A stretch of 64,000 nucleotides of DNA from Tubulanus polymorphus (taxonomy: Eukaryota > Animalia > Nemertea): positions 13,852,850 through 13,916,849 of the forward strand of contig NC_134029.1 in the NCBI RefSeq assembly GCF_964204645.1. Reading direction: 5' to 3'. The notes beneath the pieces are model-generated. The model was not told the origin of the DNA, made no database searches, and saw only the letters and a program-made list of their open reading frames with translations. The position numbers were made by a program, and so were the translations under genes. Below are positions 8,860 to 51,685 of this stretch, piece after piece; within the stretch, counting starts at the first letter, position 1; each line of letters starts with the position of its first letter.

Positions 8860-9769
8860 AGCATAGGGAACCCCGTTAATGAGGAATTTCCAAACAAACT
8901 AATGGATGTTTATAAAAATTCTATTCCGAACCGTTTTGTTACTATTAGAAATACTTCATAACCCATGGGTTTAATGATAAGATTAGAAGTGAAATAAATC
9001 GTAGAAATAGGTATCGAAAATTATCGAAAGCATAAGAAAACTGGTAACCCTCATTATTTCAATAGCTATAAATTGCAGTCAAACTATGTAAATCGCCTGA
9101 TTGCTGAACAAAGAGAGAACCATGAAAATAAATTACTAAATGGCCTTGGAAGTACATCATCATCAAAACGTAATTACTGGGCAATTATTAGAAAACTATT
9201 GGGTGATAAATTTGATAGTGGTAAACCAACTCTCTTTGATCAAGAATCAAACAAAGAATGTACCTCGAGTTTCGAAAAAGCTAACTTATTACTGAATTCG
9301 GTGACAAAAAAATATCATAACGTCAAAAACTTTGATGATTTTCCTGATTTCCCAGACCGATGTGTAAATAATGTTACAATTAACTTAACATTTCCGGATT
9401 CTATCTTCAAATTGATACAACAGTTGCCTATTAATAAAGCCTGTGGTCCGGATGGTATAACAAACAGAATGTTAAAAGCTTCAAAACATCAGGTTTCACC
9501 TCTGATTTCTGAGCCTTATATATAATCGTCAGTCTGGCTTTCTGCCAGGTCACAGTACCTGCGACCAAATTCTAGCAATATCACAGAAATCTCGACGTTC
9601 GTTCTGTATATTTAGACATTAGTGTCGCATTCGATTCAGTTCCGCATAAGCTGTTACTTCATAAATGAAAGGCTTATGGTGTAAGGGGAAACGTTTGGAA
9701 TATAATAGAAAATTATTTAACGAACCGTAAGATTAAGGTAAAGGTGGATGGTATATTCTCTGATACATC
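8860..9769 (+). mobile_element. CR1/L2-group LINE, 5' portion of ORF2 (decayed)
   Basis: ORF 9073-9525 has KANLLL and KACGPDGITNRMLK. Downstream broken frames give LDIS.AFDSVPH.LLL and YGVRG...ENYL.NRKIKVKVDGIFSD. The left boundary is approximate. Confidence 0.85.
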
Positions 9770-9965
9770 CAGGTATATAAACTGCCTATTTTTGTAACTT
9801 GCTCATACAGTTGCTCATGAGCATTTTTTAGGTTTTGTAAGTTGCTCACATCTACTGAGGTGAGCCAGTGTAGGGTTTTTGAAAGTTGCTCACATCTACT
9901 GAAAGAGTTTTTCAAGTTGCTCATACATTCTAAAAATGATTAAATAGGCCTATCAAGCTACCAAA

Positions 9966-10372
9966 TCTTAAACTTAACTACACCAACTATTCAACTTTCT
10001 ATAACATTGTATAGACTAATTTTACTCTAAAATATAGATGTCTCTAATTTGCTTTAGACTGATTTAGCCTACTTACTTACTCTTAAAGCTCACTCCCTAA
10101 TTAGCCGTAAGTCCCTATCAAATTTCCCCTAATTGCCTTAAGACTGATGTCACCCTAAAATATAAATTTCTTAAACTTAACTACACCAACTATTCAACTT
10201 TCTATAACATTGTATAGACTAATTTTACTCTAAAATATAGATGTCTCTTATTTGCTTTAGACTAAATTTAGCCTACTTACTTACTCTTAAAGCTCACTCC
10301 CTTCTTAGCCATAAGTCCCTATCAAATTTCCCCTAATTGCCTTAAGACTGATGTCACCCTAAAATATAAATT
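9966..10372. repeat. ~203 bp near-perfect tandem duplication in the left subterminal region of the KDZ element
   Basis: TCTTAAACTTAACTACACCAACTATTCAAC...CACCCTAAAATATAAATTTC starts at ~9966 and ~10169. Confidence 0.9.
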
Positions 10373-10443
10373 TCATTAATTTGCCTCTACACTAGTATAC
10401 TGACTAGTATACAGTTTACTTTAAACAATCAGATGATAATATG

Positions 10444-10477
10444 TATAAAAGCCTTGCTTCAGTGTGGTATATCAGTC
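10444..10477 (+). promoter_or_regulatory. TATA box plus initiator core promoter of the NRF1-like gene
   Basis: TATAAAA at 10444-10450 and Inr-like TCAGTC at 10472-10477 (+1 A is 30 nt after the first T of the TATA box); ATG follows at 10524. Confidence 0.6.
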
Positions 10478-10523
10478 GGAAAACTTATTTTGTCGTGGAC
10501 ACGTATATATGTAATTATCATTG

Positions 10524-12469
10524 ATGGATACCGCTACGCAACGTGCAGTTAACCGCATTGTAAAAGGTGTAAATTCGTATGTGAAGGACACATCCATGGA
10601 TGCTGGAGCTGTTTTTTTTACACAGATAAAATAACCAAACAAAAAACACTAGGAATTGTTGGATCGCCATTAATGCGCGCAGCGTTCGAGGATAACAAGG
10701 ACATTATTGCGGAGTCTATTGCCAATGGATTAACTTCAGTGACGGTAATACCTCCAGGGGAATGTATAACTGCTCCAGTTGTGGAGTTCAAGTTACCTAA
10801 CATAATGATCGACTATGGGAAACCACTGTCCCGATTACCACTGACAGATTTGCGGGTGATAATTCCAACTGAGGTGTTAATATCCAAATTGATGGACAAT
10901 CCAAATGCTGAAAAATTGCCTCGATGGGGAAATGAGAGTAAAAGAACGCCATGGTGGCCAGCGGATTGCAAGTGGCTAAATCTGAGATATGACAAAAGAG
11001 ATGCATCAGAAAAAAAGGGAGAATCAGCAGCAAATGTGTGTCGCAGAATAATCACTGCGGCATATAGATATCATAATGTATTGAGTCTTACTGGTAAGTC
11101 TATTAAATTTTATGATTTATGATAACTAGCAGGCCATTACCATCAACAAAAACAGGGAACCTCCCTGAGCAGACAGGCCACCATCATCATAAAACATAAT
11201 TTTAATCTTATTTCATTTCTTATTTATGCAGGTGATGAGAATGGTCTTAGCAATGAAGTCACCTCTGCTACAACCGTTGATGCTGCATATATAAACAGTA
11301 CATATGCAATCCCCAGTGACCCCGCTACTCCGTTAAGTATGTAATAAAAATCATATGCTAAAATTAAATAACATCTATTTGATAATCATATATTGCAGTA
11401 TCTTAGTGAAACTGGCTGTTTTGCCAACCTATAGTTTATTACGTAAGAACCTCTACAATTATAGTTTAATACTTTTTTGTACTTTTATACTTCAGTTGAA
11501 GACTTCCCAACCAGCACCAGTAATGAGACGTATATTTTCCTCTTAATTCGACATCCGAAGCCACTGAAATTGATAACTTGGATATTGGTAGTAAGTATAA
11601 AAGTAATATGCATTATTGATGCTATTAGTGAATTCATGTACCCATTATTGTGTATATATTACATTCTCAAAATAATTTAGATTGTTTCTATTTTTCCGAT
11701 TCATAATGATATTTTTTGCCAGTAGGGGGTCATTCATTTATTACGTACGCATTAGGGGAGGGGGAGGGGGTCAGTGCAATTGCGTACTGTAATGCTTAAT
11801 GTATATGAAAAAATGGCCGATTTTGCGTACAGAGGGGGAGGGGGGTTGAAAATTTTAAATTTTATGCGTACGTAATAAATGAATGATCCCTAGGTTTTTG
11901 CTTGTAGATAATTTGGTGCCTATTTCCATTTTCAGATGTTTCTAAAATCATAGAGGCAGTAAATAATGCAAGTGATTTAATGAACTTGAATTTTTCATAC
12001 TTACTGGCGGAAAGTGTTGGTAAGTCTTATTTTGATTTTAAATTGATAATGAAAACGTCACAAAACAGCTTCCCTTGAATGATTGTTCTATTCAGTAATT
12101 ATTCTGTTATTTAAATAGAAAATAGATATTGTGAAGAGAAACAATCTGATGATTCGCTACATACTCCGAATACTACTATGATTTGTGACAATATTCAGAA
12201 CCAAACACATTCGGACAGTATTCCTGCAGGTAAATTGAAATTATATCCTTTTAAGAGGGATGAGATAATCAGAAAGAAAACAAGAAATTTGCAGTTTATG
12301 TGTTTGCTCATATTTTTCATTTCTTTTTCAAACAGATGTGACTAGAGATTTGTCCAACAGCACTCAGAATGTTGCACCAGTCCGCCAAAGTCGTGCCCGA
12401 AAGGTTACCAAAAGAATGGAGGAATGGAAGAAAATGGAAGGGAAACGTCGACGAATTGTTAAATTCTAA
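10524..12469 (+). CDS. Transposon-borne NRF1/EWG/P3A2-family DNA-binding-domain protein; 6 exons, two apparent 1-nt frameshifts (possibly a pseudogene)
   Basis: Exons 10524-11093, 11232-11336, 11496-~11590, 11936-12019, 12119-12229 and 12336-12469, with GT-AG phase-1 introns. Exon 1 has LTDLRVIIP...PRWGNESKRTPWWPADCKWLNLRYDKRDASEKKGESAANVCRRIITAAYRYHN, matching NRF1 QLRAFIP...PGWGKESCKPIWWPEDIPWANVRSDVRTEEQKQRVSWTQALRTIVKNCYKQHG as I recall it. Basic NLS-like C-terminus RKVTKR...KRRRIVKF*. Confidence 0.8.
11726..11890. mobile_element. 165 bp MITE in intron 3 of the NRF1-like gene (PIF/Harbinger-like)
   Basis: TIR GGGGTCATTCATTTATTACGTACGCA ... TGCGTACGTAATAAATGAATGATCCC, with TAG on both flanks. 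Confidence 0.8.
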
Positions 12470-12503
12470 TTGTCAGACATGTAAATATACAAAATTCGAT
12501 GTA

Positions 12504-13111
12504 CCGTATTTTCCGGCCAATAAGACGAGGGCAGTTTTTTAGCATAAAATACATGGATTTCATAAAGCTTCGCCCAATAAGCCGAGGCCCTTCATCAGAG
12601 ATTTTAATTCACTGATTTGTCAATTAGTTCGTCTTAATTGACGATTTAAGAGGCTGACAGTATCGCCCGCCGATGTGTGAGAGTGCTGTGTATACTATCA
12701 TCGCCGAGTGACTGTGCTATATATAGACTCACTCAGCTGATTACTATACACACAGCCATACACGCAGTACGCGGCTCACTGCTGATTTGCGTATATACTA
12801 ATGTATGAACTGACACGTGGTAGTACGATGAACTCGCGCATTATATTAATGTATACCATTGCCGCTGTGCGGTGATGGAACAATCAAAGTAAAAATAAAA
12901 TAGTTCAAAATAGATTATAATTGGTAGTAAACAATGACCTCAAATAAATATCGACCACTTTTCTTGATTTTGACGATCATTGAGAGCATTAGAGTGGCAT
13001 AGATCGGGAAGTGATTTTTTATGTCAGATCGTATCCGCCCAATAAGCCGATCACGATATTTTGGGTAAAAATCTGAGGCTTGAAAATCGGCTTATTGGCC
13101 GGAAAATACGG
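12504..13111. mobile_element. Tc1/mariner (pogo/Tigger-like) MITE
   Basis: TA|CCGTATTTTCCGGCCAATAAG ... CTTATTGGCCGGAAAATACGG|TA. Confidence 0.85.
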
Positions 13112-13206
13112 TATATGAGTATTTTAAACTTTTTGATCAATATAGTTATTGCTTGCTTACAAATGATTGCTTTCTTTCCTTATCAGCATATAAACACACA
13201 CCGTGG

Positions 13207-14035
13207 CAGGGTCCCTACAGATCAATCATTCTAGAATTCAAGGACTTTTGAAGGATAGAATTTCAAATTTGAACGAGTGTCTGCTGCATCACTTTCATAT
13301 CCAAATTACGGTCCTAAAACGGTACTGCTTATCTTGGTAAACCGGTAATTTGGTGGTTGTATAAGAAAATTTTTATCTTTTATCCTGCTACACTTGATTT
13401 CTAACTGTCTAATTGAGTACAAAAATCCTAGTTCCAACAGTACTAATTTAGGTGTAGTGTATCTCTTCTGTTCAACTACAAACAAAAATGTACAGAAATG
13501 AACTTAAAATTCGCAGATTGAACATTTTGCAAAACGTTTATCTTAAGTTTTCAGAAGCCAATCCTTAAGGTCTGGATCCTGAAGCCTGATATATTCAAGT
13601 GATACATAATTACTGTCTCAACTAATAGTGAAGCAACACTTTAAACCCTTGAAAATACTGATTGATTAAAATAACAGACCCGCTAATCAGTACTAATTTC
13701 CCAACCAGGCAGTCTTAATTAAATAATGCTGAACAATTCTGAACATAGTTCTTTTGTCCAAGAGATACAATGAGAACCACAGCAGACACTATGTATTAAT
13801 CATACTACAATTAGCTGGTGAAAGACTGTGTGTATAGGGCCTATGACTACTAACTAGGCCTAATCTTGGAAAACACTTGTAACCTAAACATTTTCTCATT
13901 GCCAATTTCTCAAAATTCAAGGAGTTTTCAAGGACTTTAGGGCATTTTGCTCCAATTAAAGGATATTCAAGGACCTTGAAAAACATTTTTGGTTTAGAGG
14001 AGTTTTCAAGGAATCAAGGACCCGTAGAGACCCTG
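13207..14035. mobile_element. MITE with CAGGGT...ACCCTG termini
   Basis: CAGGGTCCCTAC ... GTAGAGACCCTG with internal TTCAAGGA repeats; flanks CGTGG / CATGG (possible 5-bp TSD). Confidence 0.65.
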
Positions 14036-14568
14036 CATGGTGTAATCAGTGTAGAATATAACATTGCAGAACAATACTTGGACCGTGGACAAATATGCAT
14101 CAAGTGATAACATAGAGACATAATCTTGAAGAAACACTCTACGGTATTCATGTTGCAGCAACAATTCATAAAAAAAATATTGCTTGTGTTTGATCAGTTT
14201 CATTTTCTGAGCGTGTCAAAAAAAGTTTGTCAGTAAAAAATTAAAATGCGCATCCCGCATGCAGAAATGTTTTTTTTTCACTATTTGAATTTGGATTAAG
14301 GCCCGTCACTTTTCCAAAAAGGGCTGATGAAAACAAAGGTATTTCTTCGTATGGCCTAATCCCACAATAATGATTAAGAATAAGTCAGAAATGTTTCCTT
14401 TGAGCTAATGTCTTATTCGATTTCGAGTTTACAAAAATACTCCATGTTTAATTAATTATATTATTTACAAAAAGAAATTTGAGGCAAAATACAGAACAAT
14501 TCAGGTAGGCATAGTGAAACCTGGTAAATGTGTTATGATACAATACATATTTCAGATTCAATTTTTTT

Positions 14569-17500
14569 TTACAACTTTACATTTTTATCCTGATTTTTAA
14601 GGACCAGAAATAATGCTACATGCCAAACAAAGTTTTCTGGCTTCATGTAAGCAAGTTGACTTTTCAGGTGAATAAGTCCCGAATTGTTCATTCACTTGTG
14701 AATTAATATTGGAAAGATCCACATTGCTGCAGTAAGTGTCTAGTTTATAGCCAGCACAACACCTACAAAATGGAAAAAAATTAGATACATATATACATGA
14801 CGAGTAGATGGGGTGATGAAAGATATAATTCACGAGATAATACATACCCTGTATGATTTACCCAATGCATTCTGTCCACACAAAATATAGTGTTCTTGAA
14901 AAATTCTGGTTCTCTGTAATTAGAATAATTAATGGACTTACTTCAATAACAATCAACCTCGGTTAATCACTATCACTTGGGACTGAGCTCTTTAGTATCT
15001 TGATAACAGGTAATCCGTTATCTATGAATTACTTAATATTTCTATGGTCAAATATAAGTGCACGGGCCAATTGCCTAAATACTTACCTATTAAGAGCATA
15101 TTGATGCAGCTTGCATGCATTATCATACACGATCATAGACGGTGGCCTGGGGAATCTTGTCTTAAATATTGAAAATGGAAATCGTGGCGATTCATGAGAC
15201 TCCATGGCCTATAATACAATATACAAACGAATCAACAGATACAGGGTATAAGAGGTAATTGCTTTTAAAAAAAATAATTCTACTGAATGAGTATGTTCAC
15301 CTGAAATCCATAGCAGATTCCATGCGGACAAAACACAGTAAAAATCCCTGGTGTAAGAACCCTGTGGCGTTTTGACATCTTATTACAGGCATCATCCCGG
15401 CACATGTCATTATCCTTCTTATCATCCATTACATATGCTGCATCACTAAAAAAACACATCTGCCCTTATATATCACATTGACAAATGAAAAACATGTTGA
15501 ACTGAAATTACATTAATAATACCATTACTTAATCAATAAATCTTCCTAGAAAAGTATTCATTACCTGTGGTGTTTAGGTAAACTCGGGAAAAATGACAAA
15601 CTCTTGAAAAGATTTTCGTATGGAGCTGGTGTGTATATATGATCCTTGTTGCACTGCAATCAAAAGTAAATCAGACCATAAGCTCATCAGGCATTATCTA
15701 AAATATGTATTTACGATGTAACAAAAACTTCTCACATTTTCTCTAAATTATCATCCATTAAAAATTCATTACCTTAAAACAAGTACGTATTTTCTTCAGA
15801 AGTTCTCTTATCAAATCAATGTAGTCATTATGCAGATTACCATCTGATAAACTCTGACTGATAAACTCAATCAGTATAGGTGCATCTATCAGTAGCTGAT
15901 TATATATCTCTGAATTCTTACTATCAAATGTTTCAGTTATCTCGGACAGCGCGTGATCCAAAATATCTATGACGCGATCCAAATCATTGGTCTGTAGAAA
16001 AGCACATGCTGGACCGTTGGCACTGATTGCTTGAAGGAATTTTGTCTCAGATGATTTACAATTTAATGAGTTTGAAGCTGACACTTTATTTTTGAGCGGG
16101 TTAAGGTGTTCATATTTGCTGATTCGTAGAATTAAATCCTGCTTTTCTTCTGGTGTCAGTGGTAAAGGAGATCTTGGTTTTACGTGAGTTTTTGACGAAA
16201 CCTTCGGCCCCCAGGCATATTGTGAAAGTAATTTTCTTGCTTTGTTGTCTGGTACAAACACTCTATCTTTGTGATGTGTGCCTGAAATCCTCGTGCCTGC
16301 ATTATGAAAATTCATCAACTGTATCGACTTGAGAAAATCTTTTCTAAAACCCAAATCAACACCGTCGCAAACAATAACCTAGAAAAGAAAACCTTTATTA
16401 CATATAGTTCCAGGAACCCTACCGTCAAGTTGGTATTTTCAATCAGTCAATTATTTACCTGAGGATGTTTTCCACACTGAACGCATTGGAATTCTCTAGC
16501 CCAATCAAAATCTAGCAGATGCATCAGACCATTCCATGCACGCTGAAGCGTATGGAGAGGAATAATAGGAATCTTGAAAAGCGTTCGTGATGATCTTGTC
16601 AAAGCTCTGAAAAATATATTCAAATTAGACTAATCCCTAAATTAGAAATAATTGAATTGTAGTATAAAGTATCTGAAACAGCAAACCTGTGGAATGTGAA
16701 GTCTGATTCATTAGTTTCTGGATATGGAATAGATTCACTGTGACACCAATCACGATAGCGAAGAAATGTGATCGCAATGACTATTAAATCTGCATTCCTC
16801 GCATACTAATTTCTTCAAACGTGGTTGCCAATGGATAACACTTGTCTTATCATCCAGAGTCACACTGACAACTAGAGGAGACACTGACAACTGATTAACA
16901 GTGCAAACATCCACGGGATCACTGATATTCTGCACATCATAAAGCTTATTAACGGCATACGCATGAATGCAATACTGATTTTCTTCGCGTTTCATGAAAG
17001 TCGATACAGTTTCACCCTCGACTGCCCATTTAAGAGAAAGAAGTCGATTTCTGCTGAGGTGTGCATTCTTACAGCTACATGTTAACACTTTAAATCCCTC
17101 TCCAACACAGAAAAACTGTAAACTATGCAAAACAACATGCACATCTTTCAGAATAGTTCCTTGATCATTGCTATCGGCTACAATATACGTTTGGCCGTTT
17201 ACGTTCCAATGGCGATGAGTCTTGTTCAGTTCACCTACATAATACACGTGCGGACCCAATTCCAAGTCAACTGCAAGAATGGTGTCAATATGCCTATAAG
17301 AAAATTGAGAACGGATATGAGAAATATATTCATTTTTCAATAGATGTGAAACCTTTCATTTAATCACAAACATATTATTTTAATGGAAATTTTTTCATTA
17401 TAGACAAGTAAGAAGTATTTTTTATCTTTAGGGTAGACACTGAGCAACTTTCATGAGCAGCTCCCATAAAATTAAAATACCTGAGCAAGTAAATGAGCGG

Positions 17501-17859
17501 CGTGCATAAATGGCCTACCCACCTGACCTGAGCAAGTATACATGAGCAGCAACTAGTTTCTAGTGTAATTAAGGCCATTACGGCATTAGGCCTATATATA
17601 AAATGCTGTGCTTAGAGGCTCATTTAGCTACATAGCATGCAAGGATTCACAACGAAAAATAACTTACTGGAGAGATGTCGCAATGATTTACGTCGCTGCT
17701 TGACGACGACGGTGTGTTTGTCGTTCGTTGACGTTGTTGATGCCGACCGTTTTTTTGGAGAACTGCGACTGTGGTTCCACATTTTTTTGGTTTTGGATTA
17801 CCGGCACTATCTCCGACTCCGGTGCCAGCGATCATATCATTGTATGATCGCCGAGGCAT
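14569..17859 (-). pseudogene. Spliced KDZ-type transposase (CxC/HMGXB3-like), frameshifted
   Basis: Exons ~17859-17668, 17352-~16687, ~16606-16459, 16378-15773, 15653-15565, 15445-15301, 15208-15087, 14913-14848 and 14762-14569, with GT-AG borders. Motifs: SWIM-like CSC...CIH and CEEC....CDH; FQCVQCGKHPQ|VIVCDGVDLG; SFFPSLP; CNK...LTPGIFTVFCPHGICYGF; ESPRFPF; IVYDNACKLH; VDRMHWVNHTGC; INSQVNEQ...LKSQLAYMKPENF. Indels near 16750 and near 14685 break the frame. The exon 1 assignment is less certain than the rest. Confidence 0.85.
17440..17550. promoter_or_regulatory. Three spaced direct pairs of TGAGCR motifs in predicted transposase intron 1
   Basis: CTGAGCAA-N4-6-ATGAGCRG at 17440, 17481 and 17528; the same hexamer occurs in both element ends. 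Confidence 0.55.
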
Positions 17860-18223
17860 TCTAAGAAAATCTATCTATGGATATAACCTTTCTGCGTGAG
17901 TGAGTAGTAGTGCAAAGACTTCGAAGCTTCTGCTCGGATATTGTCTGATTAAACGTCAGCCGGCAGCGCCCAGTGACACAATTCAATTCAATAAAGATTT
18001 ATTGCAACCAGGTTACCGAAATAGGTTCGAATCCCGAAATATTTTTCGTGCAACGTGCGCGTAGCGTATGATTGTAAAAATCATAATCATACAATAAAAC
18101 TTTATTGATCGGATTAATTTTGCAATAAAACTTCCGAGTAAAAGTCAATGAAGTATAGGCTCGCACAAACTGATACCGTCTACGCCTACGGCACGTCTTT
18201 TGCGAATTGCTTTCTGCTCGATG

Positions 18224-18400
18224 ATGAGCAGTGTTGACTGCTCACCCAATGAGCAGTGTTGACTGCTCACCCAATGAGCAGTTTTGACTGCTCACCCAGG
18301 TCCGCGAGCGGAGCGATCTGCCGTGCCTGAGCAGTTTACAGTGCTCAGCATGAGCAGAAAGCAATTCTTAGAAATGCTCATGCGCAACTCATGTGAGCAA
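18224..18400. repeat. Right subterminal motif array: three 25-bp units plus further TGAGCA/TGCTCA sites
   Basis: ATGAGCAGT(G/T)TTGACTGCTCACCCA x3 at 18224-18298; TGCTCATGCGCA at 18375-18386. Confidence 0.9.
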
Positions 18401-18436
18401 CTTACAAAAAGCACTGAATTTTATAGCTCATACATC

Positions 18437-19760
18437 ACCTGATAACTATGTAAACAGCTCCGTACCACAGGGATCAATTTTAGGTCCATTGCTATTTTTG
18501 TTGTATATTAATGATCTTCCCGATGCTGTGTTTTTGTATGCAGATGATACCTCCTTATATTCTAATATTGATTCAACTGACCCGTACCCTGGTAATCAAG
18601 CTGTCCAGTCAGATCTTGATAATATCTCGAAGTTGGCACTTTGCTGGGATCTTGAGTTTAAGCCTAGTAAGAGTTGTGATGTCACATTTTGTAAAAGCGA
18701 CATCAAGAATTATAATCCTTTGTTTTTAAACGGTATTCGTATCCCAAGTGAAACGTCACACAAGCACTTAGGTTTTATCTTAGACTCAAATATACGTTTC
18801 CAAAAACATGTTGAATCTATTTATGAAAAGGTACAAAAATTTTAAATTCGTTAAAATCACAACACCTGAACACAATCTACAGTTCATTTATATACCCACA
18901 CTTTGAGTATTGTGATGTAATATTGAGTAGCACCAACAAAACAACTCTAGATAGGCTTGAACGGCTCAATTACCAGTCTGCTATCATAGTATCTGGCTGT
19001 ATCACGGGTTCTAGTAGAGAAAAAGTTTTAGATGTCGTTAACTGGCAATCATTATCATGTATAAATTTTCAAAATGTATGCACCCCTCTTATGTATTATC
19101 ACTCTTCAGTACCTACCAAAATATAGCTGAAAGAAACTTGAAAAATCAACAACCTTTTCGTATACCCCATCGTGTACCATGTAAGATTGAGAATTCCCCT
19201 TTATTCAGACTTATGGCTGTCTGGAATGACACTTGTAGAGGTTCGCCCTATTCAAAACTTTTCAATTTTTAAATCTAGAGTCTATAAACGATCATCACAA
19301 GTTTCTACAATCACGACAGCAATGATTCCAAATTTAAATCGTAGAGAAGAAATGTCTTTAAAGAGACTACTTGTAGACCTCTTTTTACGATCCCAGCTAT
19401 ATGATCATAATTTTAGCAATGTGCTTCATCCAAATTGCCCTAATTGCAACAATAAAAGACTCGATACAGTTCATTTCCTTTTAAAATGCCAGCACCCTCC
19501 TCATTGCGATAAAATCCATTGGCTTCTCCAGGACCTTGCTAATGAAATTCAATTATCTACAATGCAGCAATTCTTTTCAAAACGACTTATTGATAAATGT
19601 AAATTTTTATCGTTTGGTAGTCCAGACCTGAATTATAATACTAAAATCAGTATTATCTCACTAACCGCAAAATTTGCAAATCTAAATCATTATGACTACT
19701 GACTGTGAAATGATCAAAACCGTGTGATAGTGGTGATGCTGTTATTGTAATAACTACTAT
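18437..19760 (+). mobile_element. Same LINE, 3' portion (RT core and C-terminal Cys/His region)
   Basis: VPQGSILGPLLFLLYINDLP, LYADDT, HKHLGFILD and C-terminal CPNC...HFLLKC. Rejoins the 5' part in frame (FSDTSPDNYVNSSVPQG) once 9770-18436 is removed. Confidence 0.9.
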
Positions 19761-35500: not shown

Positions 35501-37500
35501 TGATATCCTATAGTAAAAACAAGAAATTGGAGAGTTCAGTTCATATATAAGTGTGGTATTTGTTACAGCCGCATCAAACAAAGTATTGTATAATTATTAC
35601 ATTCGCATATAATAAAGCTGCTTTTTGTATTGTCATGGCTGTTCATTGTTAGTATCAGGAATCTGTCCTCCTTAAATCACACTTGGCGACGAGGAAAATG
35701 TTTTAAAGATGAGTCTAATTAGTTTATGTTCCGAATATGTTGAGTCGGATGACTGAGAGAATTTCACCGACCGGCTAGAACAGTATTTTGTAGCCAATGC
35801 CTTGGAAGAGGAGGACCGGAAGCGAGCCGTTCTGCTCACTGTTTATGGATCGGCGACATATTCACTCATCCGTAGCTTAATTGCACCATCCAAACCCAGT
35901 GATAAGACCTATGCAGATCTAGTAAAATTGGTGAAAGACCATAAAAAGCCGCAAATGAGTGCTATCCTGGCCAGGTTTAAATTTAACTCGCTAGTCAGGG
36001 AGAAATCTGGCACTGTTTCGCAATTTGTAGCAGACTTGAAAGGGCTGGCTGACAAATGCAAATATGGGTCTGAACTGCCGATGATGTTACGCGATCGTTT
36101 TGTAATCGGGGTGAATGACGAACGCAATCAGCGTCGCCTGTTGTCGGAATCAGATGCCCTGACATTCGCTAAAGCAGTGGAGATAGCTAGGTCCTTAAAA
36201 ACTGCAGAGGAGAACATGAAAGAGATATCTGGGTCAAACCCTGTAGTCAATCGGGTTTCGAACGCTAGACCAAGCCATGTTAAACCGAAGGACCCGAAAC
36301 CGCAAATTAAGCCTCATAGTCAGAATCAGCTTCCTAAAGAATCAGCGGGTCGAATTCAGTGTTACCGTTGTTTAAGGCCTCATAAGGCTCATGTGTGTCG
36401 TTTCAAAGATGTCAAATGTAATTTCTGCCAGAAGATTGGTCATATTGAGAAGGCTTGTAATGCTAAAAACAGCAATAAAGGTCGTGAAAACCAGCGTAGA
36501 AATCGCCGGTCTGAGAGACAAGGGCAAGCATACCGTGTAGAATCTTCAGCCCTCGAGAACCAATATGAATTAATGGGGCGCATCACAGCGATTTCTGATG
36601 TTCACAATCGTGATCCCGCTAGTTATAAATAATCGTTCGGTAGAGATGGAGCTCGATACTGGGGCTAGTCGTTCTATAATGTGTCAAAAGACATTTGATT
36701 CGTTGTGGAGCGAGGTAAATCGACCTGTTATTAAAAAGTCAGAGTTAGACTTGCGGTCCTATACGAACGACATCATCGATGTTGTGGGATACGTCGAAGT
36801 GGAAGTTCAGTATCGCGGAAGAGTTAAACCGTTGGCTCTTTGGATTGTCTCGAGAGACGGCCCAACATTATTAGGGCGTCCATGGCTACGTGCGCTGGAC
36901 ATTCAGATCAAAGACGACCGTGCGAAGGTTAACTTCGTGACTCCGCATTGTACTTCAGTAGAAGAATTGTTGAAAAAGTACGACCAGGTTTTCAAAGAGG
37001 AACTTGAAACTTTCAACAAAGCTAAGATAAATTTGAAAGTGGATCCGAATGCCACACCAATATTCATCAAAGCTTGTTCGGTGCCGTATATGATGAAGGA
37101 GAAAATTGAGAATCAACTCGACCGTGAAGTTAGAGACGGAATCCTAACGCCAATCGAAACCAGTGAATGGGCCAGTCCGATAATGCCTATGTTAAAGAAA
37201 GATAGATTCGGAGAGGATTTGTGGCGACTATAAACTGACTGTGAATAAAGTAACTAAATTAGATTCGTATCCGATACCTAAAGCGGAAGATTTGTTTGCA
37301 GGACTTGCTGGTGGGAAAAAGTTCACGAAACTCGACTTATCGCAAGCCTATCTACAGATGGAACTAAAGGAATCGTCAAAGCAGTATACAACTATCAACA
37401 CTCATAAAGGACTATATCGTTACAATCATATGCCTTTTGGTATTAAATCAGCCCCTGGAATTTTTCAGAGGCACATTGAGAACATATTGAAGGGTATCCC

Positions 37501-38398
37501 CAGAGCTGCAACCTCAGAAAGATGTTGTCAGTACAATTTTTTGAGTTTGTCAGTATTTTCTTGAGGTTGTCAGTATTTTTCCAAGAATAACGCGACACGA
37601 AATAAGCTTCCAGTTCCTGTCCAAAAATGGAATTTCTAGCCAAAAATAAATGAGTCGACCACAAGATTAAGATATTGTAAGAATTAATGCTAGGATTTAT
37701 ATATTTTACATCGAAAGTTTCGATGTAAAATGAATCTGTAAATGAATATGTAAAATGAATCATGTATATCATTTCAGTTTTACATATTCTATCTTGATAT
37801 TCAATAGCAATGTGGAGATATACATGTTGTGATTTATTCTTTTAATCCATCTACGTATCACTACAAAACTCTTCAATAAATAGCCGTTTTTATTCTAAAT
37901 CTAATTGCTTTATTAATTCATAGCCCCTTATTACAGTTTATGATTCATAAAAGTCTTACTCGTAATTTAAAGCTTTTATTATCCTTGAATTAAATTATAA
38001 GACGCGTGCGCCAGAGTTCTCCTTGTGCGTCTCAGTGGTGTTACAACACAGCGCATGTATTAATAGCCATATATGTTCTCTATTGATCAATGCTACTACA
38101 GCAGGGAAGTGTGTCTGTGTGAGACTATAGTATTACAAAAGCATTGAACGCTGCGCTGGCTGCGCGCCAACACAACTGTTGAAAGACAAAACAATACTGA
38201 CGGGAATAATGACTGTTGATAAGATGCTGATAGCATTCCACTGCTAATTGTAGGCCCACTATTGACTATTGAGTCAATTATTTTAGACTTTCAGAATTCT
38301 ATTCAAGACCGTACTAAATAAAGAGCGACCGTAACACCGTACACAATAGGCCACGGCCGTATGAAAATAAGGTGGAAGCGTACGGGTTGGCAGCTCTG
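37501..38398. mobile_element. MITE inserted in the Gypsy RT
   Basis: CAGAGCTGCAACC ... GGTTGGCAGCTCTG; flanks TATCCC / TAATCCC. RT reads through as LKGIP|LTFIRMDDVL when the insert is removed. Confidence 0.85.
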
Positions 38399-38631
38399 TA
38401 ATCCCTCTCACATTCATCCGCATGGATGATGTATTAGTGACTGGTGTAGATGACCAAGATCACATCAGGAATCTGGGTCAAGTGTTGAGCAGGTTACTGG
38501 AAGCAGGTTTACGTGTTAAGCTTCCAAAATGTGAATTCATGTTGCCTGAAGTCACTTACATAGGAAAACGTATCAACTATGAGGGTATCCGTCCTACGCT
38601 TGATAATGTTTAGGCTATCCAAGATGCCCGG

Positions 38632-41600
38632 TGTCGAATTATTGCCTATGGAACGCTTCGAGGTTTCAACATCAACAACACGAATTAATCCATCTTTTCC
38701 TGGATAGACCAATTTGATTTCTCCCAATTTCCACTGCTGCCTTGGAAGATCTTTATCAATAAATAACACAATATCTCCGATCGCAACTGATTTGGAGACA
38801 ACCATTTCTTTCTCGCGCTCAACTGAGGTAGAATCTCTTGGATCCACCTACACCAAAACTGACGAACGACTTCCTGACTATGTCGCCACTTGTTACGCAA
38901 ATTGAACAGAATGCAGTCTACACTACTCGGCGCAGTATCTCCGCTGACTCGTCCCACGATAAAATGATTTGGTGTCAATATAGGTTCATTTATATCTTGA
39001 CCAACCAACGGTCTCGAGTTCATTAGTCCTTCAACTAATGTAACGACTGTACGAAACTGCTCATCGTTTAATTCGCTACCTCCGATTATTGCTTTTATCG
39101 AACACTTTGCGGCTTTAATCATTGTTTCAAATACACCACCTGTGGACTAACAGGTGGATTCCAAATCCAGTTTACTCCGTTATTTGCTAAGTTATTCGAT
39201 ATCTTATCTTGATCAAGACTATCAAGACAATCGACGAGCTCCTTCAACTCTGATTCTCCTGAAACGAAACTTCCACCGTTATCTGATAAGCATCTTTTGG
39301 GCCAACAACGCCTCGCCGCAAATCTTGAGAATGCGCAAAGGAACGAATCTGTATCCAGGCTATCAGTAGCTTCGAGATGTACCGCTCTGACTTGCAGATC
39401 GACCATCAAAAGGAGGTATCTTTTCGCCCTAGCACGACCTCTGCCCACCTTAACTGAAAACGGACCAGCGAAATCCAAACCGATTTCTGAAAACACATTC
39501 CATGATGAGTTTACTCGAATACTAGGCAGAGGAGCCATCTGTTGACTGAGACGCTTGTTTCGTAACCCTCTAAGACAATACGCACAGTTGTTCGCGATTT
39601 TCTTAACCACAGTCGACCCTTGTAAAATCAGATATTTTCTACGAAGAGTGTTAAGAATATGTACTGGTCCTACAATATGTGCAGTATCATCATGTGCCTG
39701 TACTATCAAAAGTCTTGTAATGTCACTCGACTTTGACAGAATTATCGGAAATTTTGTTTCTTCCGGTAATAATTAGCATCTTTCGACTCTCGTTCGCGAT
39801 CGAAGAACTCCATTTTCGTCCAGGTATGGGTTCAATCCTGCGATTTTACTACTGAGTAATACATTTTTCTTCTTTTCTAATGCTACTATTTCTTCACTGA
39901 AAGCTTCTCTTTGACCTACTTTCACAAACTCTACTTCCGCTGCTTTCAGTTCATCAGGAGACAATACACGATCATAATTTCTGCTTGACTTACACGTTAT
40001 ACAGTTCAATACAAATCGCTTAATCCACGCATAAATTCGAACCAGCGAAAACTTTCCTGTCGAGGATATACCACCGTTTTGTACGGGTAACCATCTAGAC
40101 CATCGACTAGGTTTCAAACTCCACACAAATTCATCGAGTGGAATATTCGTCATCGAATCATCATTTTCTTTGCGATTTTCTGTATTTTCGACATTTAAAT
40201 CCAACGCACGAATCATAAACCCAGTAGGTTTTTCTGCATCTGGATTTTCGACTGTTTCATGAGTAATATAATCCCTCCAATCTTCACGAATTTCATCCAT
40301 TGCTTTGGATGATATTTTGATCTCTGTTTCTGGCCACGAGTCTGAGTTATCACATAGAAATTGTGGTCCGTGCCACCATAACTCTTCATCTTTCAACCGA
40401 ACTATACTGCAGCCTCTTGACGCGACATCTGCTGGATTACAGCTTGTTGGTACGTATCTCCACTGAGACGGAGAGGTAACTTCATGAATTTTACCAATAC
40501 GATTGGAAACAGAAGTCTTGTAGCTTCGACTTTCTCCTCTTAACCAGAACAAAACATCATAAGAATCGCTCCAGAAAGTAGCTTTTTCTATTCGTAATTT
40601 CAGCACTTTACATACTCGTCTTGTCAACTGCATACCAATTTCCATTAACTCTAGCTTCGGAATTTGAAATACTCATTGTTGGAGCCAACTTCGATTTTGC
40701 AGTAACTAGTGTGACAGTAACTGAACCATCTTCATATGTAGTTAACTGATACACTGCTTTGGAGTAAGCTCTAATCGAAGCATCACCGAATGTATGTAAA
40801 GTCACCGATTTTACATCTTTTCGAGTCTTCAAACATCTTGGTATGTGGAGACATGAGATCAATGACAAATCTTCACACCACGATTTCCATTTCTGATGTA
40901 ATTGTGACGTAAGAATCTCATCCCATTTGAGTCCTTTCAGCCAGGTTTCTTGCAGAATGATTTTCGGTTCAAGGACTTTAGGTGTTATAAGTCCCATCGG
41001 GTCAAATATCCGAGCGATATGACTGAGAACTTCACGTTTCGTTATACTGTCGTGGTATTCTGGTACGTTAACTTGATATTCAAATGTGTCTGATTCTGCT
41101 TTCCAGTAGACACCCAGAACTTTGGTTTTTGGCAATACATTGTCTTGAATCTTCAATCTATCGGATTCCGGAATATCTTCTAAGTCATTTCTGTCATTTG
41201 ACATCCATTTTCTATAATGAAATCCTCCATCTGTAGCCAAAGCTGTTAACTGTTGTCTGGTGGCTATGGCAACATCTGGGTCATCCATTGAACAAATTGT
41301 GTCATCCATGTATGTTTTCGAATCAACTGCATCAGCTGCAAGGGGATAAACTTCTTTCTTCATTTTCGCATGAGTCTGCCATACATACTGAGCACAGCAG
41401 AGAGAGTATGTTCCACCGAATACATGACTTTTAAATTCATAGACTTCAATTTCACCGGATATCTGATTTTTCCAGAGAAATCTATGATACTTTCGATCTT
41501 CTGGCTTCATTTCTATTTGCAAATACATCTGTGAAAGATCTGCACCCATAGCTATGAGTCCACTTGTTAATGGAAACTTCAAATAAATCAGCTTGAAGTT

Positions 41601-44600
41601 TCGGTCCGGCATAAGCTTCGGAGTTCGGACTTTTTCCTTAGTACTTCGACGATCCATCAAATACGATCCGTACTTTTGTTGTTTCTCTATCTGGCTTAAC
41701 TATCGGAAAATGAGGTAAATACCATGCATCAACATTTTTGAACGATTTTAACGGACCTTTGAATTCAATGTTATCTTCGGTCAGGTATTCTGCGATTGTT
41801 TCTTCATACGATTTTTTGATGTCCGGATTGGAATCAATTTTCTTCATTAATAATTTGAGTCTGTTCAACGCTACTGACTGATAATTTTCCAGATAGGGAC
41901 TTTCATCATTCCAAGGAACGCCAATTTCATAACGCTTGCCGTCGAACTTCAACAATTGCTCAAGCTTTTTCTGAGCTATTTCTTCGTCAACTGATAATTT
42001 AGATCTTGATTCATCGAGATCCGATTTTTCTATCTCCCAAAACGCTTTAAGGGTAGAATCTAACGAAATTTCTTCTTCATTCGGATTTTCACGATTAGCC
42101 AAAATCGTTTGACAGATTACATGAGTCTGTTTCTTCACGTTATGTGACTGATTTACATTGTCACCGATACACGTCCAACCGAGCAGACAAAGACGAGCGA
42201 TTGGATCCGACGGTTTTGGACCGCATATTTCTTTCAAACAGTACAGTAGATGTCTACAATCTTTTCCAAGTATTCCCTCAATTGTAGAATTAACACCAAC
42301 ATCTGGAAAGGGTATACCTTGCAGATGTGTCCACCAATTACCTATCTTCGACCATGCAATCGACACCATACTGTCGCAAACGTTATCCACCACGTAAAAT
42401 CGCTGCGTGGCTAAGATTTTATCTGAACCGTTGTAATGTCTTATGTTTACATCACAAACTCTCGATTTCGTTGAAATTTCCGAACCATCGAATACTTTAA
42501 CCGTCAAAGTTTCATTGTTATATTTCAAATTACGCATATGCAATACAGCGTGAGTACTGAGGTAACTAATGTCACTGCACTCATCTAGAAGAACTATTGT
42601 CTGACGTTTATCATGACCATCACCAATATAGATAGGAAGAGTTCTCATTCCAACGTTCACTGAACTATCTGTAGCATATATCTGCTTCGCCATAAACGAA
42701 CCATTCTTTTTTACGTCAGTTTGTAATGACGACTGGATATTTTCTTGATCTGTAGTTTCATCATCTTTATTTTCCCGATCGTAAGTTTCTGATTTCTTAA
42801 ACTAACTGTGTGTTAGAGTACAGCCAGATACTCCACACTGTCGTCTACTATTACAATCCGACCCACGGTGATACGGATGTAAACATCGAAAACATGAACC
42901 AAGCCTTTTTGCAGTAGTCCAACGTTCATCGATTTTCATCTTTCGGAAACGGTCGCATTTTACTTCAGTGTGTTCCATTCCACACACGCTACATTTTACT
43001 GAATTACCCACGAAGGTACCACTACGTTTATTCGGTAATTTTCTATCAACAGTCTTCGAATCATGATCTCGAGCTTAACCAGTCATAGTACTGTACAAGC
43101 AATATCTCAGGAATCTTTCGAGATACAATGCTATACCAAGCACCATCACCGAGATAATCACCTTTTCCTCCAGCTTTCAATTTTGCCACTGCTGGTTCAT
43201 CTGTACTGTCAACTACGTTCACGAAGGCCGTCCAGTAACTGTTGAATGTCAACTTATTTCCATCAAATACAGGAACTTTTATGCGTTCAAGTTTGGAAAC
43301 AGCTGTAACAGACGATTCATCTTCTTCAAGGCTAATTCTCTTTCTTGGAGTGGACTTTTCTTTTTACTCATGTCATTATATTCATTGACCGAACGATTCA
43401 ATAACAGAGAGCGAGCCTTTTCTATTTCATATTCTGTTGTATTAAAAACCTCTTCTGCTTCAGCTTGAATATTCTGAACGCCTTTACTATTATTTTCTGT
43501 TAAGTGGAGTTGTTCTAACTCATCTAGTACTGACAGGACTAAATCTCTTTTCTCATGAATATTGTCTATTATCTCTAGTACTTGACTACCATTCCTTTCT
43601 AACACCTTTGCTGTCAATTTTGTTAGGAGTCTACTCAAAGTGCTTTTTTCTATTTTCTTAAGTTTTTTCAGCTTACCTAAACCACGTTTTGAAGGGCTGT
43701 TCGAATATCACGGATACCGGACACCGGACACCTAAATACCGGATACCGGATACTCGAGATTGCGGAGTATATAGCGCATCGGGTCTAATGATCAGCGGTA
43801 AACGGCAGTTCGTGTGAGATCTAGTAGAAGAATAAAAGGCCTATATTATTTTCATAATACATCGGTTTATGCTTTTCAAGTACAGTAGCATACAAATGTT
43901 ACCGGTTTAGACAATTCAATACCGATTTATTGCTTCCGAGTAATAACACGATTACATACGACAGACACGGTAACACACAGTGGACAGAAAATATTTTTTA
44001 TCATTCTGCCAATTTGAACGGATTACCGAATAGACCGTTACCGTTTTGGGCAGAGGTACTGTACAATACAAAATATCTATATCATTCAGTTTCACGAAGA
44101 AGGCCATTTTAATCAAGTTAAGCGTTATTGACGATCTATATTTTCATGATCTTTAGAATCAAATTTAACATCAGGGTAAATAGTCACTTCGAACTATGGT
44201 AGGAACCGGTATTCGACGAACTGATTTTTGAAGGTTATACCAAAACAATTGGTGTCCAGTGGTGTTGATTTTCGACGACCGCCATGGACTCAATTTCATT
44301 TTTAGGGACATCGTGATTGAGAATGAAATGTAGACATATCGTCCAATAAATAGAATATACCGAATATTCTCCTCCATAAAATAAGAAAACGAATTTTTAT
44401 TCTTTGTTTGTAAATACTTGTATTTCATTGGTGTTCAGCTCAACTATTCCATCGTAAATCAACAAAATGTACAGATCTTTAAAACAAACTTTATTAGAAG
44501 GAACTTTAGAACTGCCAGACTCGCTTATGGCCTTCCAACTTGAGATATAGGGCCTAGCAGTACTCAGTCCTATTAATGAAAGGATTTTACAGAAAAACCA

Positions 44601-45326: not shown

Positions 45327-47218
45327 CCCTGTGCGAGAAAGGTTTGGCTGTGGTTTATGGTGTCACTAAGATGCACCAATATCTATATGGTCGTCAGTTT
45401 GAAATTGAGACTGATCAACAGTCGTTGGTAACTTTGTTGGGTGAAGCCAACGATATCCCAGCTACTGCATCGCGCCGTGTTCAGAGATGGGGGTAACTGT
45501 TGTCAGGTTATGATTATTGTATTAAATATCGTAAAGGAGTTGAAAATGTAGCTGACGCGTTAAGTAGGTTACCAGTTAGTGATAATCAAGGGGGTACGGT
45601 ACCTCAACCCCCAGCGTTTGTAAATCTTATGCAATGTATTAATCATGTAAATTCACCACTGACAGCTAAGCAGATTCGACACCTGACTGACAGGGACACA
45701 GTCCTATCAAAGGTTCGGGAGTTCATCCTGTCAGAAGACTGGTCAAACATTCCAGAGGACCAGCAGGCAGACTTCAAATCTCATAAACGCCGTTCCATTG
45801 AACTCAGTGTTCATTGTTGCTGTGTTTTATTGTAATGCCTACTGCTAGTCACAATCGTGTTATTGAAGAAGTTCATGATGCCCATCCAGGCATCTATATT
45901 ATTAAGGCAGTATGACGTGGTATTTGCTGGTGGCTAGGAATCAATGAGAATCTTGAAGAATGTGTCTGCAAATGTTCAATTTGTCAGGAGAACCGTGCAA
46001 AGTTGTCAGAGGCTCCTTTAAGTATGTGGGATTTTCCCAAAAGCCCATGGTCACGTATTCACATAGACTACCTAATTCCATTTCAAAATCGTATGATTTT
46101 AGTTGTTGTTGATTCATTTTCGAAATGGGTCGAAGCTACAATTATGTACAGTAGGCCTACTACTTCTTTTGCTACAATTGAAGAGTTGAGACGCATTTTT
46201 GCTGTCCATGGTTTACCAAAGTCTCTAGTGTCTGATAATGGTTCTAACTTTACTAGTAGCGAGTTTGAAAATTTTTGTATAAATAATGGAATCAAGCACA
46301 TAAAGAGTGCACCTTACAAGCCTGCTTCTAATGGACTAACTGAGCGAATGGTTCAATCAATCAAAAATGGTTTGAAAAAACTTTCTAGGGGTAGTTTGCA
46401 GAATCGATTAACTGGATTTCTGTTTAGATATAGGAGCCAACCTCATTCAGTAACTGGGGTATCGCCAGCTGAGTTATTGTATCGTAGAAAGCTGCGTACA
46501 CGCTTGAGTTTGATTTCTCCATGTTTAACTGAAGTAGTCGAAGCACGTCAGGAGAGCCAAAAGAGGAATCACGATAAGAGGAAAACATTGTGTAGAGAAA
46601 TCTCTCAAGGTGACTCAGTTTTTGTTTGAGAATGCCCCGGGTTCGAAGCCAAATGGTTGCCGGGTACTGTGGTTAGTAAGTTAGGATATAGGTTGCTTGA
46701 AGTAAAATTGTTAAGTGGTAGAAACGTTAGGAAACATGTGGTCGAAACTCGTTTAAGGTAAACTGATGATGATCAGTACATCGATCAATGTACATCAGTA
46801 TGGGAATCTGAGGGTCCATGTCCTGAGAGGGGAGATGTTGAAATTAGTGCTGTTCGAAGTTTAGATCCCCAAAAAAATTCTGGGAAGGTGCCAGCACTGC
46901 GACGTTCTAGCAGGACTGTTAAGAAACCTAACCGGTTAATTGAAAGCGAGGTTGTCTAGAATACTTGTATGTTTAAGTGATGTAATGTTTGCCGATGCCT
47001 GTATTTGGAAACTATGCATGTAAAATTAAGAGGGGATAATGTGGTATTTGTTACAGCTGCAAAGTATTGTGTAATTATTACATCCGCATATAATAAAGTT
47101 GCTTTTTGTATTGTCATGGCTGTTCATTGTTAGTATGAGGAATCTGTCCTCCTTAAATCCTCCTGCATCCACCCGGACATCACAATAAGCGCGTTAATTC
47201 AGGGGAAATCCTGCTTAA

Positions 47219-50453: not shown

Positions 50454-51685
50454 AAATAAATTGCCCATGGACAAAGTGTGGTTTACCTTGAAAGCTAGAG
50501 GTTGTATGGAGTAAGGGCATTGCTTTAAAAATCTTTTTAATTCGTGACTTCATAGTTCTACAAGTTCATATTGTATTTATCTTTCTTAAAGAATTATTTT
50601 GCAGTCAAAAAGAACAAAGATATACATTTGTTTACGGTCCACGTACAACATTTCGTAGGGTACATGTAGGCGCGGCAGGTAAAGTATTTTATATTTTCAA
50701 AAAAATATGTTTCACAATATGAAAAAATATTCAAATAAAATTCATATGATGTCTCATATCAGAGGGTGGCTGAATATTGAGTCTTGGAAACCTCTTCCAA
50801 TGTATGGCCGCGGAAGCTAAAATACCGGTACAGTAAGAAATCGGCGTATTAGATCCTTTCAAATCCTAGAATTTACCACCACAATATTCAGACCTCGACC
50901 TATACCTATAGTTTGCTGCTTAGTATTTTCAGGTCACAAGAAATTACAATTTATTACAAATTCTATCAAACAGAAAACACAGCGCGCATCTTCTGCTACC
51001 ATTATTCAGCCGATTTTCATGTCAAACGTGCACGCGCCAAGCAGCGTTACAGCATCATCATATAGTAGTGTACTGTACGAGTGTGTGTTTGTGTGCGCAC
51101 GTGGAAGCCTTCTGTAAGTGAATGTTCGCTTACACTTCAATGTGAATCAAAACAATCACCGGGTATTAAAATGAAACAATACCTATTGTGGATGTGTGAA
51201 ATAATTACATATTCACCTGTCACTCCGTGCAAGTGGAGGCCTTGTGTAAGTAAATGTTTGCTTACACTTCAATGTCAATCAAAACAATCACAGGATATTA
51301 AAATGAAACAATACCTATGGCGGATGTTGTCATGACTAATATGCTATATTCTACATTTCAATATATTATAAGTTACAGTCTATGGTTTTTGAACGGTATT
51401 CTCAAGTCGGCATCCAGTCATATCAGTCATGACAACATTTCACAGATATGTGAAATAATTACACATTCACCAGCAATGAGCATTTGAAATTCGCACGTAT
51501 ACGCCACCTAGTCCAATGAAACGTTCGCCATTCTATGGCTTACCCATAATTATTTTAGAAGCGCCGGAATTCCCCGTATATCCCAAAAACACCCAATCAC
51601 ATTCGCACGTTAAGAGGATGCCCCCAATCGAGGTCATTGCAATTTTATACGCAGGAGCTAAGAATTTTTCCACCAAAACAGTTTT
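50454..51685 (-). mobile_element. Helentron-like element, copy 4 (split by a LINE; last ~50 bp at 57050-57101)
   Basis: Same left end (AAATAAATTGCCCATGGACAAAGTGTGGTTTACCTT). Lacks the Harbinger MITE and has an internal duplication. The terminal AATTGGCTCAATGCC...AAGGTAAACCAAAA resumes right after the LINE tail. Confidence 0.8.

Follow-up and report, generated by a model that had tools for sequence, protein, structure and literature searches.

The KDZ superfamily of DNA transposons includes Kyakuja, which has a 7-bp target-site duplication (TSD) and CA..TG termini without terminal inverted repeats (TIRs), Zisupton, which has an 8-bp TSD with TIRs, and Dileera, which has an 8-bp TSD (PMC12730594; the papers cited here and below are represented by part of their text). 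KDZ elements often have accessory genes (PMC12477816), and KDZx1 of Cryptococcus deneoformans joins KDZ, CxC4 and SWIM and has a second open reading frame (ORF) of unknown function (PMC11343200). In another transposon, Harbinger3_DR of zebrafish, a Myb-like protein recognises a subterminal motif of 9 bp and also makes contact with the transposase (PMC9710019, citing earlier work). Here we describe a 64-kb stretch of DNA (the window) of the nemertean Tubulanus polymorphus, in which bases 9770-18429 are a KDZ-superfamily DNA transposon of 8.66 kb that sits inside a long interspersed nuclear element (LINE) and holds a transposase gene together with a gene for an NRF1-like protein. Judging from sequence comparison, we think it on balance probable that this is a dead, low-copy, two-gene KDZ transposon, in which a dimer of the NRF1-like protein is predicted to bind arrays of a short word at the two ends and to help load or pair the transposase.

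Boundaries and genes of the element

All pairs of a start at 9755-9789 and an end at 18415-18459 were scanned, and ATACATC is the longest exact repeat flanking any of them; an exact 7-mer at fixed ends has a chance probability of 1.1e-4. With the right end at 18429 the ungapped register of the TIRs has 24 of 36 bases identical, while the other 30 ends tried reach at most 16/36. The whole TIRs are about 62 bp long and imperfect (45 of 62 aligned bases identical, one gap), and the termini read CA..TC. When the element and one TSD are removed, the flanking LINE sequence becomes a single open reverse transcriptase (RT) frame (RVT_1, E 7e-8). The bounded insertion with its 7-bp duplication and imperfect TIRs, as well as the restored LINE frame, had been proposed in the initial annotation and both hold here, the latter with a long junction that is weighed below. 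Two other placements were rejected: the runner-up among independent TSD candidates, a 6-bp repeat at 9766/18438 (TIR register 16/36 against 24/36), and the Kyakuja-like CA..TG termini CAGGT..ACCTG ending at 18441 (11/36 against 24/36, with a TSD that would match at only 4/7).

The minus-strand gene encodes the transposase. Its downstream exons are joined by GT-AG introns, and spliced from 16524 they match exactly the RefSeq protein P0002 (LOC141905706, T. polymorphus). This protein passes the Pfam KDZ model PF18758 narrowly (27.7 bits against a cut-off of 26.6), and its sister copy P0008 scores 27.3 bits against the same cut-off; in a profile search made exon by exon, no single exon of the window matched the KDZ/CxC models. 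A structure model of P0008 (predicted local distance difference test, pLDDT, 88.5) resembles RNase-H DDE enzymes, the best being ISCth4 (Z 8.8, root-mean-square deviation 4.1, 203 aligned) with integrases next, and Foldseek gave no match to it at E<=0.001. From this model we infer a choice of three acidic residues that may be catalytic. A SWIM-like Cys/His motif is present in the transposase. CxC4 (PF18717) is matched in 7 of the 9 relatives scanned, two of them above the cut-off, and its region is deleted in the window copy, which lacks about 150 codons near 16700 (about 25 codons are present, against 170-175 in four of six relatives, the four that have both landmark motifs). Moreover, there are frameshifts near 16757 and near 14685, and the other two T. 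polymorphus copies do not have the latter. The window copy of the transposase is dead. Contigs of run X2, a run of unrecorded kind, are joined across four predicted introns of the gene, the exon pieces listed being free of mismatches, and none of those four joints is found in X1 or in the DNA run X5; we read the spliced contigs as transcription and splicing of the window copy or of an identical allele. The transposase alignment search gave 160 relatives among 7138 candidates; in the 120 rows listed, the named relatives belong to hemichordates, amphioxus, a brittle star, molluscs, a soft coral and a fish.

The plus-strand gene, convergent with the transposase gene, is NRF1-like. Exon 1 holds the dimerisation and DNA-binding domains, after which come a Ser/Thr-rich tail and a basic C-terminus, and the predicted exons agree with the related protein P0001 as far as the tail. 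The ORF at 10553-11119 matches PF10491 with 52.2 bits (cut-off 23.5, E 8.8e-14), and the solved NRF1 chains 8k3d and 8k4l are the sole significant matches by sequence and by fold (Foldseek probability 1.00 to both). The window protein keeps the equivalents of R206, W224, N242 and R244. A frameshift lies in a run of eight T at 10612-10619 in exon 1, and a second one, relative to P0001, in exon 3. Beyond the 8-T run, the first helix of the dimerisation domain is found in the other frame, from the ATG at 10524; this frame piece (10524-10628) matches five of five relatives in anchored ungapped scoring (one of three registers tried for each, shuffle p <0.0002 to 0.024) and has no match by pairwise BLAST or by a purpose-made profile. 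Thus both genes are broken in the window copy, which the initial annotation did not see. Its description of two convergent multi-exon genes is confirmed by the spliced models and the identity with P0002, its KDZ assignment further by the PF18758 score and the DDE-like model, and its NRF1 DNA-binding domain by the PF10491 and Foldseek matches. As leads from the ESM Atlas, the best score for the window ORF is 0.87, and P0048 (an 'Ewg-like' protein of Ptychodera flava) scores 0.90 to an NRF1 cluster. The weak look-alikes there of P0048 and of 10553-11119, below the bars of the tool, are GTF2I-repeat, YDR124W-like and MADS-box clusters, and KDZ partners might, as a lead, come from one wider fold group.

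Words at the ends and the putative role of the NRF1-like protein

The word TGAGCA/TGCTCA occurs 58 times in the window, with 24 occurrences in the element and 17 in the 431 bp of its ends, where 0.26 would be expected from the rate outside; it is the top hexamer common to both ends. The TIRs hold the 12-bp near-palindromes TGCTCATGAGCA and TGCTCATGCGCA at equivalent places, about 42 bp from each tip, and these differ by one or two letters from TGCGCATGCGCA, the site preferred by human NRF1 (PMC10810270). Allowing one mismatch at most, the 12-bp site is found in both TIRs and nowhere else in the window; these two sites, each counted on both strands, compare with a shuffled mean of 0.41 matches, and 2 of 100 shuffles reach 4. 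For a 14-mer with a single G-to-T change, human NRF1 has a dissociation constant of 2.23 uM, compared with 0.31 for the NRF1 site itself; its binding to the double variant is weak, and the changed base pair is contacted by the backbone carbonyl of R244 (PMC10810270). That single-variant 14-mer agrees with the site in the right TIR at 13 of its 14 bases. Proline at 243, which gives N-P-R/K, is found in 5 of 124 rows of the domain tree, all in the clade of the element. Because both ends are studded with a one-letter variant of the NRF1 site, the NRF1-like protein likely recognises the ends of the element.

The NRF1-like search gave 123 matches among 1.84 billion representatives, mostly ordinary NRF1 orthologues. 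The tree of the domain against NRF1 orthologues, which the initial annotation had called for, was run as a quick tree of 124 rows (11 of 135 were dropped as too short). In this tree the window protein does not group with canonical host NRF1, and clusters in a separate divergent group with P0001, P0024, P0048, P0064 and P0094 (Shimodaira-Hasegawa-like approximate likelihood ratio test, SH-aLRT, 98). The DNA-binding domain is 32% identical to the human-type NRF1 row. Since the identity is this low and the grouping is with other divergent proteins, recent capture of host NRF1 is disfavoured; the gene had been called 'captured or ancestral', and our comparison leans away from a recent capture and leaves the remainder at that. 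T. polymorphus has another NRF1-like gene of this type, the diverged P0025 (LOC141915157, on a 32.06-Mb contig), with 46-53% identity; it possibly belongs to another family of the element.

The three members of the transposase cluster lie on three contigs, which measure 24.87 Mb (that of the window; 24,873,478 bp), 14.30 Mb and 31.90 Mb. On the second of these (14,301,023 bp), the NRF1-like protein XP_074659467.1 (LOC141912150) and the transposase XP_074659468.1 (LOC141912151) have consecutive ids. Judged by id and contig, then, the pairing of the two genes recurs and is present at two places or more. One of the three listed P. flava transposases is on the same 39,134,633-bp contig as P0048, which is a weak indication. 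The X5 read depth over both genes resembles that of the flanks, and the element family is therefore low-copy. The two-component arrangement that the initial annotation had suggested thus gains from the second copy and, as an argument new to this report, from the NRF1-like sites in both TIRs.

We infer that the dimer would bind TGCTCATGAGCA-type sites at both ends, that the N-P-R/K change before the R244 equivalent would have moved the specificity from G to T where the backbone carbonyl reads, and that the bound dimer would recruit or position the DDE transposase, as may be compared with the Myb-like protein in Harbinger3_DR; the transposase would then cut and insert, leaving the 7-bp TSD. The same words could instead be bound by the NRF1-like protein as a transcription or anti-silencing factor of the element, outside the transpososome. 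Such a factor would suit the following positions: of the 17 end words, 11 are upstream of the predicted transposase start, at a distance of about 370-540 bp, and five more words are in the first transposase intron, far from either tip. NRF1 is sensitive to methylation, and CpG methylation could not block the variant word, which is without the CpG of TGCGCA. NRF1 is a transcription activator (PMC10810270). Nevertheless, the best two-half-site match stands in both TIRs at the equivalent position close to the tips, which suits end recognition, and the two roles are compatible with each other; we consider a role outside the transpososome unlikely.

That the NRF1-like gene is passive cargo, with the transposase reading the end words and the likeness to the NRF1 site due to chance, seems to us distinctly unlikely. 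Extra genes are often found in KDZ elements (PMC12477816, PMC12730594), both genes are broken in the window copy, and the locus searches gave no cross-species linkage: the transposase alignment found no loci in metagenome, viral and prokaryote contigs, nor did the NRF1-like alignment in metagenome contigs, all being collections poor in animal DNA. On the other hand, 10 of the 2080 strand-pooled hexamers are within one mismatch of TGCGCA, and a random top hexamer would come this near to it 0.3-0.5% of the time; the end words also make a spacer-free palindrome of the kind that NRF1 prefers. Furthermore, the gene belongs to the divergent group and not to host NRF1, and the residue change is placed where the site differs. 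It is highly improbable that two separate things are present here, a KDZ element and an independent NRF1-like element or gene fragment that was inserted into it once. Nesting is common in the spacer between the genes, which has several insertions, but these are short repeats that are present in many copies and have arms of their own, whereas read depth over the NRF1-like exons is low and equals that of the transposase, and both genes are also in the second copy. In addition, of the 141 inverted repeats the 25 longest include no separate TIR/TSD pair around the NRF1-like gene, in line with the single bounded element first described.

Several observations weigh against the preferred reading of a two-gene element whose ends are recognised by its NRF1-like protein. 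The likeness to the NRF1 site was noticed before counting. At 243 the residue of the window copy is Leu and not Pro, and the NRF1-like protein of the second copy has L at the R206 equivalent. In a tree of 36 rows the support for the same clade drops to SH-aLRT 84, and long-branch warnings were given in both NRF1 trees. The linkage in the second copy is known from ids and the shared contig, not from DNA. Neither the third transposase locus (31.90-Mb contig) nor the window's own copy yielded an NRF1-like record, and in the 120 rows listed out of 160 no transposase id is next to that of LOC141915157. None of the 15 joints displayed, out of 146, comes from splicing of the NRF1-like gene. As for the insertion site, such RTs usually have three codons fewer before the GVPQGS-type motif than the rejoined LINE junction has, and no empty site was seen, so that the TSD length rests on a single insertion.

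More broadly, we put forward as a tentative and rather doubtful extension that an old animal KDZ-CxC4 lineage, from sponges to ribbon worms and hemichordates, may recognise its ends through a subunit that is a dimer of the NRF1 family, with a site that was re-specified and is free of CpG, and with end words in each family that co-evolve with the linker. If the pairing were old, NRF1/EWG would be one more transcription-factor domain that transposons share, and many invertebrate 'Ewg-like' annotations would be parts of transposons and not paralogues. There is a slim chance that host NRF1/EWG itself is a domesticated member of this transposon module.

Nested repeats and surroundings of the element

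The positions of the features are collected in the table below. Nested repeats make up about 1.6 kb of the element. They include two MITEs (miniature inverted-repeat transposable elements): for the one inside intron 3 of the NRF1-like gene, no combination of a TSD with perfect terminal arms turned up, and the one just past its stop codon has a look that we take to be Tc1/pogo-like. In the third repeat, reads and contigs connect about 13270-13309 to 13881, so shorter copies of it exist elsewhere. At 18525 in the host LINE, 12 extra bases are present in 12 of 18 X5 reads and in one X1 contig; the window LINE copy therefore differs from other copies or from another allele. Elsewhere the window consists of retroelement debris, with what we presume from their motifs to be BEL/Pao-like and Gypsy-like long terminal repeat pieces and LINE fragments at 293-2161, 35757-37561, 38512-43707, 45497-46626 and 51480-56766. 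The minus-strand segment 32252-32623 is presumably an exon of a nicotinamidase/isochorismatase-like host gene.

Table. Features of the element and of its insertion site (window coordinates)
Feature	Position	Strand	Basis or details
Host LINE, 5' part, degenerate ORF2	8998-9769	+	one open frame with the 3' part once the element is removed
Left TSD, ATACATC	9763-9769		7 bp
Left imperfect TIR, starts CAGG	9770-9831	+	45/62 identical to right TIR
Left subterminal array	9800-9923		word count; 6 TGCTCA/TGAGCA words, including palindrome TGCTCATGAGCA at 9812-9823
Tandem duplication upstream of NRF1-like gene	9966-10379		204 bp, 96% match
NRF1-like gene	10524-12469	+	six predicted exons: 10524-11093, 11232-11336, 11496-~11594, 11936-12019, 12119-12229, 12336-12469
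Nested high-copy MITE, intron 3 of NRF1-like gene	11726-11890		165 bp, 27-bp inverted arms; read depth ~2000 against 10-30 around
Nested high-copy MITE, TA-flanked, just past NRF1-like stop codon	12504-13111		inverted arms, depth
Nested repeat, approximate boundaries	13206-14036		26-bp inverted arms, high read depth at ends
KDZ transposase gene	14569-17859	-	exons 16606-16459, 16378-15773, 15653-15565, 15445-15301, 15208-15087, 14913-14848, 14762-14569
Transposase upstream exon	17352 or 17293 to 16687	-	predicted
Internal array, predicted first transposase intron	17441-17548	+	word count; 5 TGAGCA words, one orientation
Transposase first exon, approximate	near 17859-17668	-	predicted
Right subterminal array	18225-18399		word count; 11 TGAGCA/TGCTCA words, four pairs 8 bp apart, including TGCTCATGCGCA at 18375-18386
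Right imperfect TIR	18367-18429	-	alignment to left TIR
Right TSD, ATACATC	18430-18436		7 bp
Host LINE, 3' part (RT; end approximate)	18437-19700	+	RVT_1 E 7e-8

Comparison with known systems

Accessory genes in KDZ elements are already known, and what is new here is the NRF1-like class of partner with a structure-based candidate target site. We found no paper that pairs NRF1/Ewg/P3A2 with a KDZ element in a search to which Iyer et al. 2014, Bohne et al. 2012, Repbase and supplements, all of which may bear on novelty, were external; in the main texts, 'NRF' has no hit in PMC12730594, and 'Nrf1' and 'PF10491' have none in PMC12062965. End recognition by KDZ elements and the roles of their accessory genes have been little studied, and here both a partner and a putative target word can be named and tested. 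Since NRF1 has a solved DNA complex, the element also provides a natural case in which specificity would have changed by one base, with a residue that is a candidate for the cause.

The PF18758 domain, the RNase-H DDE core and a TSD within 7-8 bp, the latter taken from one insertion, place the element in the KDZ superfamily. It shares TIRs with Zisupton (45/62) but has a 7-bp TSD instead of 8 bp, and shares the 7-bp TSD with Kyakuja but has CA..TC termini with TIRs instead of CA..TG without them; from Dileera it is likewise set apart by the TSD. As these lineages are described in the consulted part of PMC12730594, the combination of a 7-bp TSD, TIRs and CA..TC fits none of the three. The transposase tree holds animal and unnamed relatives and no named Kyakuja, Dileera or Zisupton reference. 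With KDZ elements in general it has in common the catalytic domain, the SWIM-like motif and, in full-length relatives, CxC4, whereas its accessory gene is NRF1-like and not TET/JBP. Compared with NRF1/EWG/P3A2 (PF10491; 8K3D, 8K4L), the window protein has the dimerisation and DNA-binding domain and, among the kept residues, the equivalents of R206, N242 and R244; it differs in its 32% identity, in its long-branch group with N-P-R/K, in its place inside a transposon and in its predicted site TGCTCATGAGCA, which human NRF1 binds weakly. An accessory protein that reads repeated subterminal words and regulates its element is also known in TnpA of En/Spm (CACTA), although the proteins are unrelated. 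The likeness to Harbinger lies in two genes within one element, the second encoding a member of a DNA-binding protein family, and the differences in an unrelated transposase family and TSD and in an NRF1 fold instead of Myb/SANT (only PF10491 was found). By analogy, the element may thus work like Harbinger without being a member of it.

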